This document shows, piece after piece, positions 5,466 through 61,132 of a stretch of DNA of 64,000 bases. Source of the stretch: Pyrinomonadaceae bacterium. GTDB lineage: Bacteria > Acidobacteriota > Blastocatellia > Pyrinomonadales > Pyrinomonadaceae. The position numbers and the translations under genes were made by a program. The notes beneath the pieces were generated by a model that was given only the letters and a program-made list of their open reading frames with translations, did not search any database and was not told the origin of the DNA. The DNA is taken from contig DATINM010000051.1 of assembly GCA_035474235.1 (NCBI GenBank), positions 40,437 to 104,436 of the forward strand. The letters are read 5' to 3'. Position 1 is the first letter of the stretch. Every line of letters begins with the position of its first letter.

Positions 5466-5523
5466 CAAACACGAAGGGCACGAAGAAAGAGTCTCAACTC
5501 TTTCTTCGTGCCCTTCGTGTTTG
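5466..5523. terminator. Perfect 27-bp-stem hairpin between convergent genes (candidate bidirectional terminator; CACGAAG-unit arms)
   Basis: CAAACACGAAGGGCACGAAGAAAGAGT / loop CTCA / ACTCTTTCTTCGTGCCCTTCGTGTTTG, read directly. It lies between the receptor stop (5419) and the frr stop (5580). Confidence 0.75.
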
Positions 5524-5579
5524 CTGACGCCGACGCGAACAACTCGTCCGCCCCGCAGCGTTCTGTTCTTCGCGTGGAC

Positions 5580-6140
5580 TCAGACGCTCAGAATCTCGTG
5601 CTCCTTCGACTTCGCAAGCTCGTCCACTTTGCCGACGAACGTGTCCGTCATCCTCTGCACCTCGTCGAGCGCGTCGCGCTCCGCGTCCTCGGAGATCTGC
5701 TTCTCCTTGAGCATCTTCCTGAGCCGGTCGTTTGCGTCGCGACGGACGTTGCGTATCGCCGTGCGGTGTTCCTCGGCGACCTCGTGAACCTGCTTGGCTA
5801 ACTGCCTGCGCCTCTCCTCCGTGAGCGGAGGAACTGGCACGCGCACCAGCTTGCCGTCGTTCGACGGGTTGAGGCCGAGGTCTGCGGAGCGTATCGCCTT
5901 CTCGATTGCGCCAAGCTGCGTCTGATCCCACGGCTGCACCGTCAGCATGTTCGGTTCCGGCGCATGCACCGACGCCATCTGGCTCAGCGGAGTCGGCGTG
6001 CCGTAGTATTCGACAACCACCGAGTCGAGCAGGCTAACCGCCGCGCGCCCCGTCCGAATCGTCGCAAGCTTCTTCCTCAAGTCCTCGACCGCCCCCTCCA
6101 TCCGCGGGCGCGTCTCCCTGATGACATCCTTCTCACTCAT
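5580..6140 (-). CDS. frr: Ribosome recycling factor
   Basis: MSEKDVIRETRPRMEGAVEDLRKKLATIRTGRA...LGLNPSNDGKLVRVPVPPLTEERR is a classic Frr sequence. The start was trimmed to the ATG at 6140 because the ORF-track extension (..LSLITYHSE..) translates the hairpin repeat. GGAGAG lies upstream. Confidence 0.93.
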   Translation of the reverse strand: MSEKDVIRETRPRMEGAVEDLRKKLATIRTGRAAVSLLDSVVVEYYGTPTPLSQMASVHAPEPNMLTVQPWDQTQLGAIEKAIRSADLGLNPSNDGKLVRVPVPPLTEERRRQLAKQVHEVAEEHRTAIRNVRRDANDRLRKMLKEKQISEDAERDALDEVQRMTDTFVGKVDELAKSKEHEILSV

Positions 6141-6151
6141 GTCTCTCTCCG

Positions 6152-6222
6152 AGTGATAAGTGATGAGTGATAAGAAGTCGAGTCCGCTTTTTCTTATCAC
6201 TTATCACTCATCACTTATCACT
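6152..6222. repeat. Heptamer-built hairpin (GTGATAA/GTGATGA units) filling the pyrH-frr spacer
   Basis: Left arm AGTGATAAGTGATGAGTGATAAGAA. The reverse complement of the right arm is AGTGATAAGTGATGAGTGATAAGTGATAAGAA, which has one extra 7-nt unit. It overlaps the pyrH stop codon. Confidence 0.85.
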
Positions 6223-6967
6223 GTTTAAGGTTTTCGTTGAAGACTCGCGTGCCGACCGTCTCGCCCGCGACGACGCGGACGATGTTGCCGGGCGTTTTCA
6301 TGTCGAAGACGACGATGGGCAGGTCGTTGTCCATGCACAAAGAGATGGCGGAGGCGTCCATCACCGCGAGCCGCTGCTCCAAGACCTCTCGGTACGTGAT
6401 GCAATCGTAGCGCGTCGCCGTCACGTCTTTAACAGGATCAGCCGTGTAAACTCCGTCCACCTTCGTCGCCTTCAGGATAACGTCGGCCTTGATTTCGAGC
6501 GCGCGAAGCGCCGCAGCAGAGTCGGTCGTGAAATACGGGTTGCCCGTCCCCGCGGCGAAGATGACGACGCGCCCCTTTTCCAGATGGCGCACGGCGCGGC
6601 GGCGTATGAAAGGCTCCGCGACCTGCGGGATGTTGATCGCCGAGAGGACCCGCGTATGCACGCCGACTTTTTCGAGCGCGTCCTGCAAGACGACGGCGTT
6701 CATCACGGTCGCGAGCATCCCGATGTAGTCGGCTGAAGAGCGATCCATGTCGCCCGCGCTCTCCGAGACGCCGCGAAAGATGTTGCCGCCCCCGACGACC
6801 ACTGCGACCTCGACGCCGAGCGCGCGCACGTCCCTGATCTCCCCGGCAATCGCGCGCGCCACGCCAACGTCAACGCCGTAATTCTGCGCGCCCATCAGCG
6901 CCTCGCCCGAAGCCTTCAGCAGAATGCGTCGGTAGGCCGCGCTCGTCGTCTTTGTTTCGGCTATCAT
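6218..6967 (-). CDS. pyrH: UMP kinase
   Basis: [15 protein letters not shown]...[13 protein letters not shown]...MLATVMNA..L; full-length UMP kinase signature. Confidence 0.95.
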
Positions 6968-6970
6968 TTT

Positions 6971-7060
6971 TTTAGAGTCCGGAGTCTCCGGGTCTGGAGT
7001 CCGAAGTCAAAGCAGTTCGTCTCGACTTCGGATTCCAGACCCCGAGACTCCGGACTTAAA
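6971..7060. repeat. Long hairpin (GAGTCCG/GAGTCTC units) filling the tsf-pyrH spacer
   Basis: TTTAGAGTCCGGAGTCTCCGGGTCTGGAGTCCGAAGTC compared with the reverse complement of the right arm, TTTAAGTCCGGAGTCTCGGGGTCTGGAATCCGAAGTC. Nearly perfect stem of about 37 bp. Confidence 0.85.
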
Positions 7061-7062
7061 GT

Positions 7063-7734
7063 TTACTGGTTGCCGCCCGCGAGTGCCGCGACCTCGCCGC
7101 CGAAGTCGTCGCCGCGCTTGGCAAGCCCCTCGCCCATCTTGTAGCGCATGAAGCGGCGGACTGTGATGCGCTCGCCCGTCTTCGCGATCTTCTCGGTCAG
7201 AAGCTCGTTTATGGTCTTCGCAGGGTCTTTGACGAACGGCTGGTCGAGAAGAACGGCCTCCTCGTAGAATTTGTTGAGTCGGCCTTCGACGATCTTGTCG
7301 ATGACCTGCGCGGGCTTGTTCGCGTTCTTCGGATCGTTCGTGGCCTGCGCGCGAGCGATCTCGCGCTCCTTGTCGAGCACGTCCGACTCGACCTCCTCGC
7401 GCGAGACGTAGCGAGGCTCGGCAGCCGCGATATGCATCGCGATGTCTTTGACGAGCGCCTGAAACTCGTCGGTGCGCGCGACGAAATCGGTCTCGCAGTT
7501 GACCTCGACGAGCACGCCGACCTTGCCGCCCATGTGGATGTAGGAGCCGACCGCGCCCTCCGCGGCGACGCGCCCCGCCTTCTTGCTCGCCGACGCCATG
7601 CCGCGCTTGCGCAGAATCTCGACGGCCTGATCCTCGTTACCGTCCGCCTCCTGAAGCGCCTTCTTGCAATCCATCATGCCCGCGCCGGTCTTCTCCCTGA
7701 GCGACTTGACCGCGCCCGGTGTTATATCCGCCAT
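7063..7734 (-). CDS. tsf: Translation elongation factor Ts
   Basis: [45 protein letters not shown]... is the UBA-like N-terminus plus EF-Ts core. Confidence 0.95.
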
Positions 7735-59987: not shown

Positions 59988-60082
59988 CCGTCAGTTCGGA
60001 AAATTGATGCGAGGCTCATAACGCACGGCGCTTCCGACTGCGAAACGAGAGCAGCCGCACTCCTGCTCGCCTCCCGGCGCTC

Positions 60083-60325
60083 ATGTTTGATAGGATACTC
60101 AACGTCATCTTTCTGTTTGCGGGTAACGCGGCGTTCTGGCTGCTGATTCTAAGCAGGCGTGCGCGAAGATTCGTCATCAAAGGTTGGATAAGAAGATACG
60201 GGACGAATGATGCCGGAGAAGAGATCAAGACGGGCGAACTCGTTATCCTCTGCATGGCGGTCGTAGGCGAAATGGCTTTCATCCTGTTGACGGTCGCCGT
60301 CATCTTCGGATTCTTGAGAAGATAA
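60083..60325 (+). CDS. Possible small two-TM membrane protein
   Basis: 80-aa ORF with two hydrophobic segments (ILNVIFLFAGNAAFWLLIL and LVILCMAVVGEMAFILLTVAVIFGF). It is AT-richer than its surroundings and has no clear SD. Confidence 0.35.
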   Translation: MFDRILNVIFLFAGNAAFWLLILSRRARRFVIKGWIRRYGTNDAGEEIKTGELVILCMAVVGEMAFILLTVAVIFGFLRR

Positions 60326-60387
60326 CGTCGCCCGCGCTGAGACGAGGAAAGCATTTTCAAATTAACTTTGGTTAAGGAGCACATCGA

Positions 60388-60672
60388 ATGCCTCAAGAAG
60401 CACTCGGAATGGTCGAGACGAAGGGACTCGTGGCGATGATCGAGGCCGCGGACGCGATGGTGAAGGCTGCGAACGTCACGCTCGTCGGCTACGAGAAGAT
60501 CGGCGCGGGCTTCGTTACGGCAATCGTGCGCGGCGATGTTGCGGCTGTGAAGGCCGCGACCGACGCCGGAGCGGCAGCCGCACGCCGTGTCGGCGAACTC
60601 GTCAGCGTCCACGTCATCCCGCGCCCGCACGGAAGCGTTGACGAGGCGCTTCCGGTCGGCGGCGACAGATAA
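60388..60672 (+). CDS. Bacterial microcompartment shell protein, single-BMC-domain hexamer type (BMC-H)
   Basis: [76 protein letters not shown] is a canonical PduA/EutM/CcmK-like sequence. AAGGAG SD. Confidence 0.92.
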
Positions 60673-60676
60673 AAGC

Positions 60677-60750
60677 AGTGATAAGTGATGAGTGATGAGT
60701 GATAAGAAGAAAGCTTTTAACTCATCACTCATCACTCATCACTCATCACT
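60677..60750. repeat. Heptamer-built hairpin (GTGATGA/GTGATAA units) filling the BMC-H / BMC-P spacer
   Basis: AGTGATAAGTGATGAGTGATGAGTGATAAGAAG ... CTCATCACTCATCACTCATCACTCATCACT. Same unit family as the elements at 6152 and 36466. Confidence 0.85.
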
Positions 60751-60755
60751 TTCCA

Positions 60756-61028
60756 ATGATTATCGCGCGCATACTCGGAACGGTCGTCTCGACGCAGAAG
60801 GACGAGCGGCTGAAGGGCAACAAGCTCCTTCTCGTCCGGCCCCTGAACCTCGACGGCTCGGACGGCGCAGGCTACGTCGTCGCCGTCGATACGGTCGGCG
60901 CGGGATTCCACGAACGCGTGCTTGTCGTCGCAGGCTCCAGCGCGCGACTCGCCGAAGGCTTGAAGGACAAGCCCGTTGACGCCGCCATCATCGGCGTCAT
61001 CGACACTGTGGATTTCGTTAACGATTAG
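60756..61028 (+). CDS. BMC vertex pentamer protein (EutN/CcmL family, BMC-P) paralog 1
   Basis: MIIARILGTVVSTQKDERLKGNKLLLVRPL...VAVDTVGAGFHERVLVVAGSSAR......VDAAIIGVIDTVD. The start was trimmed to the ATG at 60756. Confidence 0.87.
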   Translation: MIIARILGTVVSTQKDERLKGNKLLLVRPLNLDGSDGAGYVVAVDTVGAGFHERVLVVAGSSARLAEGLKDKPVDAAIIGVIDTVDFVND

Positions 61029-61132
61029 CTGTCAGCACTCAGCTTCCGTCTTGCTCCGAAGTCGAGCGGCGAGATGAAAGGCTTTTGACTGAGTGAAAAA
61101 AGTTGAATGCCGACCGCTGAGTGCTGAAAGCT
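61027..61132. repeat. 17-bp inverted repeat bracketing the BMC-P1/BMC-P2 spacer
   Basis: AGCTGTCAGCACTCAGC (61027-61043) faces GCTGAGTGCTGAAAGCT (61116-61132), with one mismatch and about 72 nt between the arms. Confidence 0.55.

Follow-up and report, generated by a model that had tools for sequence, protein, structure and literature searches.

Why should so many of the spacers in one bacterial genome hold a long hairpin whose arms are themselves built from units of seven nucleotides? The question is raised by a stretch of 64,000 nucleotides from a Pyrinomonadaceae bacterium (Acidobacteriota, Blastocatellia; assembly GCA_035474235.1, contig DATINM010000051.1, positions 40,437 to 104,436), which we refer to in full as the window. 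A sequence-only reading of this DNA had described at least 14 spacers with inverted repeats whose arms are tandem arrays of ~7-nt units, and had proposed that together they form a dispersed family. Our analysis shows that the heptamer-arm hairpins are a real, abundant and high-copy repeat family with a specific 7-nt period, that the family is truly dispersed, and that the position of a hairpin is kept across lineages while its sequence gets replaced. The feature is biologically coherent. Our best reading, to which we assign a probability of about 0.5, is that the elements are DNA-level heptamer palindromes of a dispersed family, retained as intercistronic mRNA hairpins.

An inverted-repeat scan of the window (arms of at least 18 nt, at least 80% pairing, loops of at most 60 nt) returned 13 loci, compared with 0-3 (mean ~1) over 20 dinucleotide shuffles, and the best arm period was exactly 7 in 10 of the 13. 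A repeat tool listed 32 inverted-repeat pairs separated by up to 150 nt, all of which merge into sites named in the sequence-only reading. Tandem Repeats Finder (TRF) placed period-7 arrays on both arms at 6152/6193, 9127/9180, 36463/36518, 44800/44848, 55975/56046 and 60677/60720. Fold z-scores were calculated for the sense strand against 200 dinucleotide shuffles per spacer. Strong folds (z -6.9 to -13.6) were obtained at 5465, 6152, 6976, 9127, 36471, 44796, 50004, 50671, 51797 and 60677, and the locus at 61029, though somewhat weaker (z -5.3), is counted among the ~11 strong loci. Folds at 7754, 34191 and 55974 are moderate (z -3.2 to -3.9), and the sense-strand folds at 37826 (-1.75), 49325 (-1.9) and 2231 (+0.4) are not significant. 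The predicted free energy of the hairpins as RNA ranges from -24 to -67 kcal/mol.

The figure of at least 14 spacers was thus slightly generous: there are ~11 strong loci and 4-5 moderate ones, and three of the sites then named (2231, 37836 and 49327) do not reach significance. Similarly, the description of the arms as tandem ~7-nt units is borne out at the 10 of 13 loci with period 7, but does not apply to the hairpins at 5465 and 50024-50070, which are strong without being heptamer-built. All of the claimed recurrences of unit families at distant loci were reproduced in the window. The 3' arm of the hairpin at 37826, for example, matches 51850-51871 at 21/22 nt, the 22-mer at 37885-37906 being common to both sites with one mismatch. 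The preference for a 7-nt period is evident beyond the window. In 258 kb of Blastocatellia sequence there are 53 period-7 arrays, compared with 4, 6 and 0 arrays of period 8, 9 and 10, and 1.07 Mb from other phyla contains 44 period-7 arrays. Heptamer hairpins occur in this lineage at a density of ~1 per 5-6 kb.

Each element is one long palindrome, with arms of 18-34 nt (16-37 nt at the widest) made of two to six heptamers each. Loops span 4-32 nt overall and 12-32 nt in most heptamer hairpins. The unit vocabulary is small (AGTGATR, AGTGAAG, AATGATG/AATGCGG, CGTGAAC (CGTRAAC)/GTGACAA, GGTGAAT, AGTTTTC and AGTCYGG), and in most units four variable bases follow an A-R-T or RGT anchor. Aligned by rotation, the 24 different units seen in 5' arms of the window and of relatives share an A-G-T core (0.85, 0.81, 0.81, then variable positions) with a logo information of 4.32 bits, against 3.74 +/- 0.18 for letter-shuffled units (null maximum 4.38). 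GT is present in 32 of 35 5'-arm units and AC in one of 35. The 5' arm is richer in G than in C by 29 to 1 in the window and relatives and by 54 to 4 at metagenome loci, and the palindromes have the same polarity on both DNA strands. Ordinary non-heptamer hairpins in these sequences also carry more G than C in the 5' arm (29:5 and 29:9), and the polarity is therefore not peculiar to the heptamer elements. We sought a strictly conserved loop or core and found just a loose apical AAAAG...CTTTT theme. The flanks of the hairpins show just an excess of purines on the 5' side and of pyrimidines on the 3' side.

This anatomy bears on one possible explanation, that the arrays are a platform for a single-stranded RNA- or DNA-binding protein with a 7-nt register, either Csp-like or a ring by analogy with TRAP/HutP. 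Binding of such a protein to an arm would compete with the hairpin and so regulate the downstream cistron. A strict period of 7, a conserved 3-nt anchor with four free positions and the marked polarity (29 vs 1 and 54 vs 4) all speak for this idea, as does the proposal that the TAACTGA repeats of Beggiatoaceae bind S1, Csp or CsrA-like proteins (PMC4679880). However, the anchor logo stands just modestly above its shuffled null, the dominant metagenome unit AATGATG has A-A-T and not A-G-T, non-heptamer hairpins show the G>C polarity too, and no candidate protein was identified. We regard a binding platform as a long shot.

All the loci are intergenic, overlapping genes by a stop codon at most. 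Every heptamer hairpin of the window lies in a spacer between genes on the same strand, and the only strong hairpins between convergent genes are non-heptamer ones (5465, 50024 and 42811). A crude classification of contexts in the window and relatives gave 25 co-directional, 2 convergent and 1 divergent, against a background of 160/40/37 spacers. One convergent call (in L092; comparison sequences are given L numbers) and the divergent call (L093) both concern the BMC-H-to-EutN1 spacer, which is co-directional by gene calls, so the counts are better read as 27/1/0. Among 26 co-directional spacers, the median distance from the stop codon to the stem is 5 nt (range -3 to 40), with TGA inside the first unit in several cases, and the median distance from the stem to the next start is 11 nt. 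The same spacers measure 0-28 nt where relatives have no hairpin, and the EutN1-EutN2 spacer is 2-9 nt in four related lineages. Folding would therefore loop the insert out and bring the stop-to-start distance close to that of an empty spacer. The idea that the units serve to supply stop codons in all three frames was rejected; it fits the TGA-containing units AGTGATG and GTGACAA and fails for AGTTTTC, AGTCCGG and AGTGGAG.

Could the hairpins simply be the transcription terminators of this organism, long structures that act without a U-tract? They lie directly 3' of stop codons, and in all relatives examined the rplM-rpsI unit ends with a hairpin after rpsI. Canonical terminator-like sites in the window are also not above shuffles (24 vs 23.1; 11 vs 18.3). 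On the other hand, a T-run is missing from most of the hairpins, they sit within usually co-transcribed pairs (ruvA-ruvB, glmU-glmS and BMC-H-EutN), and they are rare in convergent spacers, while the rpsB-tsf spacer has a conserved canonical terminator-like hairpin ahead of its heptamer hairpin. A terminator role for the family is quite improbable, slightly more so than a binding platform. With conventional intrinsic terminators the window hairpins share a stable hairpin directly downstream of a stop codon. They differ in that most have no U-tract and in that their stems are far longer, AT-rich relative to the genome, and located inside operon-like pairs. We rejected this class: of the hairpins, a consensus scan registers just 5472-5517, which is not heptamer-built, and 42865-42889; it misses the heptamer hairpins, few of which have a T-run.

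To what extent is the arrangement shared by relatives? An exact-protein look-up with the window Tsf returned zero identical matches, and in a one-genome-per-species collection the nearest Tsf matches (74-83% identity) come from metagenome-assembled genomes (MAGs) of Pyrinomonadaceae, Chloracidobacterium-like and other Acidobacteriota, which places the host in the Blastocatellia. Across 11 Blastocatellia genomes, the orthologous rpsI/rpsB/tsf/pyrH/frr spacers have heptamer hairpins in some species and lack them in others. Close relatives have units in common: L001, like the window, has AGTGATG at pyrH-frr and AGTTTTC after rpsI. More distant relatives use other units in their ribosomal-operon spacers (AGTGGAG, GTCCCGA, GTTTCAA and GTTACGA). 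Five contigs encode an RpsI identical to that of the window. After the rpsI stop codon these carry AGTTTTC (twice), AGTGATG, AGTGACR or another hairpin, beside a conserved rpsB leader. In the closest of the five (L084), a compensatory change has converted the pair GTCTCC/GGAGAC to GTTTCC/GGAAAC.

The BMC-H/EutN1 spacer gives the clearest series. A hairpin precedes EutN1 in 11/11 lineages (the window and ten contigs) with identical BMC-H at 88-92% nucleotide identity. The hairpins of the ten other contigs are 86-129 nt long and consist of AGTGATR, AGTGAGG, AGTGTTG, GGTGAAT-type, AGTCYGG or GACGATA units, and the site as a whole is occupied by at least five unit families. At some of these sites an older-looking GC-rich inner hairpin is enclosed by GGTGAAT arms. 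In related copies the unit variants (ATA vs ATG) are reshuffled independently on each arm, which fits unit-level slippage or unequal exchange. The earlier proposal that loci share an architecture without sharing a sequence therefore extends beyond the window: the orthologous spacers of relatives bear hairpins, often of other units, and comparison of these spacers shows the architecture to be conserved.

Relatives also have spacer palindromes of a second kind, whose two arms are each palindromic on a small scale (CGACAAACTTTAGTTTGTCG, CGACAGGCTGTTAGCCTGTCG). These are found at L006 10681-10773, L007 551-623 and L010 9930-9992, and none is present in the window.

The family is not confined to the window or its orthologous spacers. 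The composite string GATGAATGCGGARTGATG (window 51801) is present in at least 120 metagenome stretches, and 80 of these loci were read out. Nearly all are hairpins of AATGATG, AATGCGG and AGTGATG units, varying in order and number; only three orthologues of window genes occur in the loci read, and the sites are therefore unrelated. The CGTGAAC...GTGACAAG string of the window glmU-glmS spacer likewise recurs at non-orthologous sites in L118, L121, L123 and L175. Where metagenome hairpins have periodic arms, the period is 7 in 61 of 66, and the most dense case, L103, has six period-7 hairpins in 14 kb. The description of a dispersed family, made from the window alone, is thus supported both by the same architecture in relatives and by composite strings at unrelated metagenome loci. 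Loci from other phyla are mostly free of such hairpins, with sporadic exceptions in L015, L041, L049, L067 and L069.

The heptamer-arm hairpins in these five sequences lie at L015 1289-1368 and 5022-5108, L041 174-240, L049 3536-3673, L067 5566-5644 and L069 7354-7486. The sequences belong to MAGs labelled Bacillota, Desulfatirhabdium, Bacteroidetes, Gemmatimonadota and Chthoniobacter, and the polarity is as in the window. Nested elements were seen among the metagenome loci: an AGTAGAC-type hairpin lies within the loop of an AATGATG-type hairpin at L117 1003-1135, and two small GC-richer hairpins occupy the loop at L103 13047-13160 and at L127 454-562. Such nesting suggests either that older hairpins grow at their base or that loops receive insertions. 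A scan of IMG/VR contigs gave 25 stretches. Two of these (L220 and L222) are full hairpins; several, among them those in the viral or prophage contigs L225, L231, L234 and L239, are solo direct AATGATG/AATGCGG arrays, with no complementary arm, immediately before start codons; others are apparently coincidental and lie within low-GC sequence.

Such dispersal might be the work of selfish, non-autonomous mobile elements, either repetitive extragenic palindrome (REP)- or REPIN-like or an unconventional miniature inverted-repeat transposable element (MITE), copied by an enzyme encoded elsewhere and with an incidental effect on the host. We consider this the main rival to retention as mRNA hairpins and, even so, unlikely. 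It would account for composite strings at many unrelated loci, several per contig (as in L103), for the nesting of elements in the loops of others (L117, L103 and L127), for differences in presence between relatives that involve insert-sized changes in length, and for the occurrence of one unit family at different spacers in different lineages. The niche is also that of REPs, downstream of open reading frames (ORFs) between unidirectional and convergent genes (PMC3733652). However, there is no conserved terminal tag (GTAG in 5/186 flanks, CGTC in 6/186), terminal inverted repeats and target duplications are not seen, the loops are just loosely conserved, and unit order and number vary freely. 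Nor does the 64-kb window encode an obvious enzyme: none of its ~55 ORFs was recognised by Pfam as a REP-associated tyrosine transposase (RAYT), an IS200-family transposase or a reverse transcriptase. A tblastn search of all the sequence analysed (2.27 Mb) with an approximate IS200 TnpA query gave two hits, in L115 and L128, both metagenome contigs. These co-occur with classical GTAG REPs, which have not been reported for Acidobacteria (PMC3733652). The contigs carry ordinary GTAG REPs, and the hits were rejected as evidence of a link to the heptamer hairpins.

The GTAG REPs in question (GTAGCGCAGGCGTCCCGCCTGC) stand beside a heptamer array in L128 (~3100-3200 and 4321-4578), L115 (~440-480 and 10010-10282) and L176, and L128 and L115 encode IS200/RAYT-like proteins alongside them. 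REPs in general combine a stem of 5-13 bp with a GTAG or CGTC tag that is left unpaired, and those of the GTAG type are tied to RAYT (Di Nocera et al. 2013, PMC3733652). Like the window elements, REPs and bacterial interspersed mosaic elements (BIMEs) are high-copy palindromes with several families per genome, located downstream of ORFs between unidirectional genes. REPs are also probably transcribed, and mRNA stabilisation has been proposed for them (PMC3733652). In contrast, the window stems comprise 18-34 bp of heptamers, far in excess of the REP stem, and have no tag, and there is no RAYT in the window. The view that these are not REPs or BIMEs in the strict sense is therefore upheld. The same is true for MITEs: the element is wholly palindromic, has no terminal inverted repeats, and shows zero target duplication when filled and empty spacers are compared.

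At which level, then, are the palindromes maintained? The stems are 91.5% Watson-Crick paired (782/855 positions). On the sense strand, transition-type mismatches divide into 24 G-U and 27 A-C, a negative outcome for wobble tolerance as a test of RNA-level selection, and when sense and antisense folding are compared neither strand is consistently better. The even split and the lack of a better strand mean that the sense RNA bears no wobble signature of the kind left by purifying selection. Such a pattern fits palindromes that are generated or corrected as DNA and that mutation subsequently erodes. It would also be consistent with a DNA-level role, with the hairpins as cruciform-prone sites for gyrase or nucleoid proteins or as sites of replication or recombination. 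Binding by gyrase or nucleoid proteins has been proposed for BIMEs, and the long, near-perfect stems, the missing wobble signature and the lack of a consistent folding advantage for the sense strand all suit such a role. Yet the stop/start geometry and the co-directional restriction point to constraints at the transcript level, and we rank a DNA-level role as the least probable of the explanations considered here.

Codon geometry, co-directional restriction and the retention of hairpins despite turnover argue for tolerance or selection at the level of the polycistronic transcript. In our preferred reading, of palindromes shaped in DNA and retained as mRNA hairpins, heptamer units would be gained and lost through replication slippage. 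The complementarity of the arms would be kept by palindrome-templated correction (quasi-palindrome template switching) or by fold-back copying; template switching within quasi-palindromes is an established mutational mechanism. A copy process or ectopic conversion would place the same composite strings at many loci. In a polycistronic mRNA, the folded hairpin would loop out the whole insert, so that stop and start lie ~16 nt apart as in hairpin-free relatives, and the elements would be tolerated or selected because this proximity is preserved. The stem might further act as an intercistronic barrier to 3' exonucleases, an RNase III site, or a partial terminator or attenuator, and could in this way set the expression ratio of neighbours such as BMC-H and EutN, rpsB and tsf, or ruvA and ruvB. 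We infer both the mRNA function of the hairpins and the family's mode of spread from the patterns described above.

Several points weigh against this reading. For this organism, an mRNA function is deduced purely from sequence, and the sense strand does not tolerate G-U over A-C, contrary to the prediction of RNA-level purifying selection. Positional conservation could reflect a hot-spot for insertion or expansion instead of selection. The co-directional excess of heptamer hairpins is suggestive, given that the gene caller was crude and orthologous spacers were counted repeatedly. Slippage alone leaves unexplained the identical strings at >100 unrelated loci, the period of 7 and the unit anchor. 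Finally, stems of such high stability, at 0-11 nt from a start codon, might hinder translation instead of permitting it.

An undescribed, dedicated process might instead write and propagate the hairpins, either through a heptamer-adding, string-copying enzyme or through selection by a nucleic-acid-binding protein with a 7-nt register. We think this doubtful, more so than the mobile-element explanation, if less of an outlier than the binding platform alone. A candidate enzyme (a HUH/Y1 nuclease, a reverse transcriptase or a specialised polymerase) would extend an existing hairpin symmetrically at its base by A-R-T-anchored heptamers and copy composite strings from one locus to another. If true, the same process would also underlie the short tandemly repeated repetitive (STRR) elements of cyanobacteria, the TAACTGA arrays of Beggiatoaceae and the sporadic palindromes in five other phyla, and would account for the prokaryotic excess of heptamer repeats that has long been noted.

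How far is the family new? Cyanobacterial heptamer repeats have been known since 1990, and among long repeats heptamers were later noted to be the single class in excess in many prokaryotes. The STRR units described by Mazel in 1990 are said to be CCCCAGT, CAACAGT and TTGGTCA, the opposite strand of which is AGT- or GGT-anchored, like the window units. The window elements were rejected as cyanobacterial STRR in the strict sense, since the host is an acidobacterium and the units differ from those of STRR1-3. The elements nevertheless have the tandem 7-nt units, the intergenic inverted pairing and the occupation of the same spacers in relatives that mark heptameric repeat palindromes.

The sequence-only reading had considered neither of two precedents, and the novelty that it implied for the architecture is not supported. 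In filamentous cyanobacteria, STRR hairpins of tandem 7-bp units occur in intergenic regions, for example between hupS and hupL, where effects on transcript stability, translational coupling or termination have been proposed (PMC2670836), much as in the intercistronic role that we suggest for the window stems. STRR resemble the window elements in being intergenic tandem 7-bp units with several families per genome, and in folding into hairpins both between genes transcribed together (hupS-hupL) and upstream of hoxW. The window host, by contrast, belongs to the Acidobacteriota/Blastocatellia and is GC-rich (~63%), and the paired palindromic form is the rule there. We measured the stop/start geometry and the conservation of position despite unit turnover, neither of which was found described for STRR (PMC2670836).

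The second precedent is the GGGAATC heptamer arrays of Xanthomonas, with 70-75 inverted pairs per genome (Rehm et al. 2015, PMC4692102); polymerase slippage has been offered as the cause of the prokaryotic excess of heptamer repeats (cited in PMC4692102). Both the Xanthomonas GGGAATC and the Nostoc GGGGA(T/C)T repeats share with the window an intergenic excess of heptamers (PMC4692102). The Xanthomonas pairs are also convergent, with the G-rich array first on each strand (the same polarity), and sister species occupy the same spacers with varying length and sequence (PMC4692102). They differ in forming a single G-tract family, read as quadruplex-forming, whereas the window has many families that are mostly without a G-tract, and in Blastocatellia one locus can change its unit family between lineages. 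We rejected G-quadruplex repeats (a G-tract of at least three per unit, at least four units) as a class for the window elements: GGG occurs in no window unit consensus and most units have no G-tract. G-tract units in relatives and metagenomes comprise TTGGGAT (L010) and single cases of AAGGGGG and AGGGTTC.

A looser parallel is provided by the direct TAACTGA repeats, which in Beggiatoaceae, cyanobacteria and Bacteroidetes stand immediately ahead of start codons (MacGregor 2015, PMC4679880); CspB, cited in support of a protein-binding role for them, binds one heptamer per monomer (PMC4679880). As in the window, these arrays end a few nucleotides from starts and include ribosomal-protein operons. 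Read as the reverse complement, TCAGTTA, the repeat is AGT-anchored (AGTTATC), and L106 has one hairpin with this unit. The TAACTGA arrays differ in that one unit is repeated directly (inverted in a single case) and oriented to the downstream gene, and are not palindromes.

Neither RNA families nor other repeat classes provide a match. Rfam 15 at the gathering score gave zero matches over the whole window, which rules out a curated RNA family, and at E <= 1 the region 5400-9300 matched just sub-threshold, generic eukaryotic miRNA-precursor hairpins. CRISPR (clustered regularly interspaced short palindromic repeat) arrays, with direct repeats of 24-48 nt and unique spacers, were excluded, in agreement with the sequence-only reading, as the units are 7 nt, contiguous and arranged in inverted arrays. 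Among the papers searched, none was found that ties heptamer repeats to Acidobacteria, Blastocatellia or Chloracidobacterium. Judged by sequence, the window family would be the acidobacterial counterpart of the STRR hairpins and the Xanthomonas GGGAATC inverted pairs. What is new here is a vocabulary of several unit families, a strict geometry between cistrons, the conservation of position while units are replaced, and the evidence for wide dispersal in soil metagenomes.

Heptamer repeats are still poorly understood in origin and function, and the Blastocatellia lineage offers an unusually clean system in its density of elements, small vocabulary, strict stop/start placement and constant sites at which the sequence is replaced beside an identical protein. 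Two questions become testable in a culturable group (Pyrinomonadaceae/Blastocatellia): whether long intercistronic hairpins tune operon expression, and how palindromes of 7-nt units arise and spread. On the practical side, the hairpins break short-read assemblies (several related contigs end inside one) and inflate ORF calls across spacers.

Turning to the individual loci, we begin with the ribosomal-operon region. The hairpin at 6152..6222 (inverted repeats, TRF; z = -6.9) fills the whole pyrH-to-frr spacer with AGTGATA/AGTGATG units. Its outermost unit contains the pyrH stop TGA (6218-6220), its stem lies 11 nt from the frr start, and the orthologous spacer of L001 has the identical unit. 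The whole tsf-to-pyrH spacer is taken up by an AGTCCGG/AGTCTCC hairpin at 6976..7056 (inverted repeats; z = -10.6) with 33-nt arms, 31 of them paired; in relatives this spacer has different units or no hairpin. Between rpsB and tsf, a long imperfect hairpin at 7754..7871 (TRF 7753-7782; z = -3.4) is made of the units AATGATG, AATGCTG and GGTGTTA. It sits downstream of a GC-rich terminator-like hairpin with a T-run at ~7878-7925 (minus strand), directly after the rpsB stop, which is conserved across relatives and looks like a canonical attenuator or terminator. The AGTTTTC hairpin at 9127..9209 (inverted repeats; z = -13.6) lies just past the rpsI stop and ahead of the conserved rpsB leader.

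This ~85-nt leader (9040-9125, minus strand) stands between the rpsI hairpin and the rpsB start, reads CCATTGTCGCGCC...GGCGCGGCGAGTACAATAAACCAAT and folds as a GC-rich hairpin. It is conserved in all Blastocatellia relatives examined, has zero Rfam matches at E <= 1, and may be an unmodelled autoregulatory leader for S2 (rpsB).

Further along, a GGATGAA/GGCGGAA hairpin with a 14-bp perfect core occupies the spacer between accB and a HAD hydrolase gene at 34191..34264 (TRF; z = -3.2). The AGTGAAG/AGTGATG hairpin at 36471..36552 (inverted repeats; z = -10.5) has 34-nt arms that are 97% paired and stands 0-3 nt from the flanking stop codon and from the accC start. The hairpin at 37826..37906 (inverted repeats; sense z = -1.75) is a decayed member of the AATGATG/AATGCGG family. 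A CGTGAAC...GTGACAAG hairpin at 44796..44882 (inverted repeats; z = -10.1) covers the whole glmU-to-glmS spacer, its first unit containing the glmU stop codon, and a weak GGAGTC/GACTCC hairpin at 49325..49375 (z = -1.9) separates a Roadblock-domain gene from a small-GTPase gene. On either side of queA, a GTGACGG/GTGACAA hairpin at 50671..50740 (scan, TRF 50713-50740; z = -8.0) lies in the spacer to a GNAT gene, with the queA stop codon within its first unit, and an AATGATG-AATGCGG-AGTGATG hairpin at 51797..51875 (inverted repeats; z = -7.9) lies in the spacer from a brkB-like gene; the latter belongs to the family present in the metagenome stretches described above. The whole ruvA-to-ruvB spacer is filled by a GGTGAAT x6 hairpin at 55974..56069 (TRF 55975-56019 with score 76, inverted repeats; z = -3.9).

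Two hairpins lie in the bacterial microcompartment (BMC) locus at 57216-62171, which has genes for a Rex-like regulator, a class II aldolase, a single BMC-H and three EutN/CcmL paralogues, in an order kept in ten related contigs. The AGTGATA/AGTGATG hairpin at 60677..60750 (inverted repeats; z = -9.1), between BMC-H (60388-60672) and the first EutN gene (60756-61028), begins 4 nt past the stop codon and ends 5 nt ahead of the start. In the EutN1/EutN2 spacer, at 61029..61130 (z = -5.25), a CAGCACT/CAGCTTC outer stem surrounds two small hairpins.

The remaining sites depart from the pattern. At 2234..2330 a degenerate GATGAAG array (TRF row 2234-2261) has a weak partner (z = +0.37); this is probably a decayed element and, as a fold, is indistinguishable from chance. 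The perfect 28-bp hairpin with a 4-nt loop at 5465..5524 (inverted-repeat listing; z = -11.4) lies between the convergent genes for an outer-membrane protein (2360-5419, plus strand) and frr (5580-6140, minus strand). It contains two CACGAAG copies ~10 nt apart, has no period-7 structure, and is carried in identical sequence by an independent assembly (L081). At 50004..50091 (inverted repeats; z = -11.2), also between convergent genes, a GC-rich hairpin with a 23-bp core (50024-50070) has outer extensions that are purine-rich and pyrimidine-rich.

The housekeeping genes of the window comprise rplM-rpsI, rpsB-tsf-pyrH-frr, accB/accC, glmU-glmS, queA, ruvA-ruvB, mutL and greA. Elsewhere in the window, tRNA and tmRNA genes were searched for and zero were found. 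The region from 9.3 to 34 kb has zero heptamer hairpins. A low-GC island at 19900-27200 (~52% vs 63%) encodes a helix-turn-helix (HTH) gene and a DpnII-type restriction-modification system, consisting of a DpnII-type endonuclease (21106-22080) and an N6/N4 DNA methylase (21912-22985), as well as a 981-aa patatin-like protein (24218-27163). A 519-aa ORF at 17984-19543 is without a Pfam match and contains an AACACC/AACGCC tandem array (18886-19020) that translates to an Asn/Thr-rich repeat. GGC/GCC-rich triplet arrays, which bear no relation to the hairpin family, are present at 5106-5200, inside the outer-membrane-protein gene, and at 63929-64000, beyond the last called ORF.

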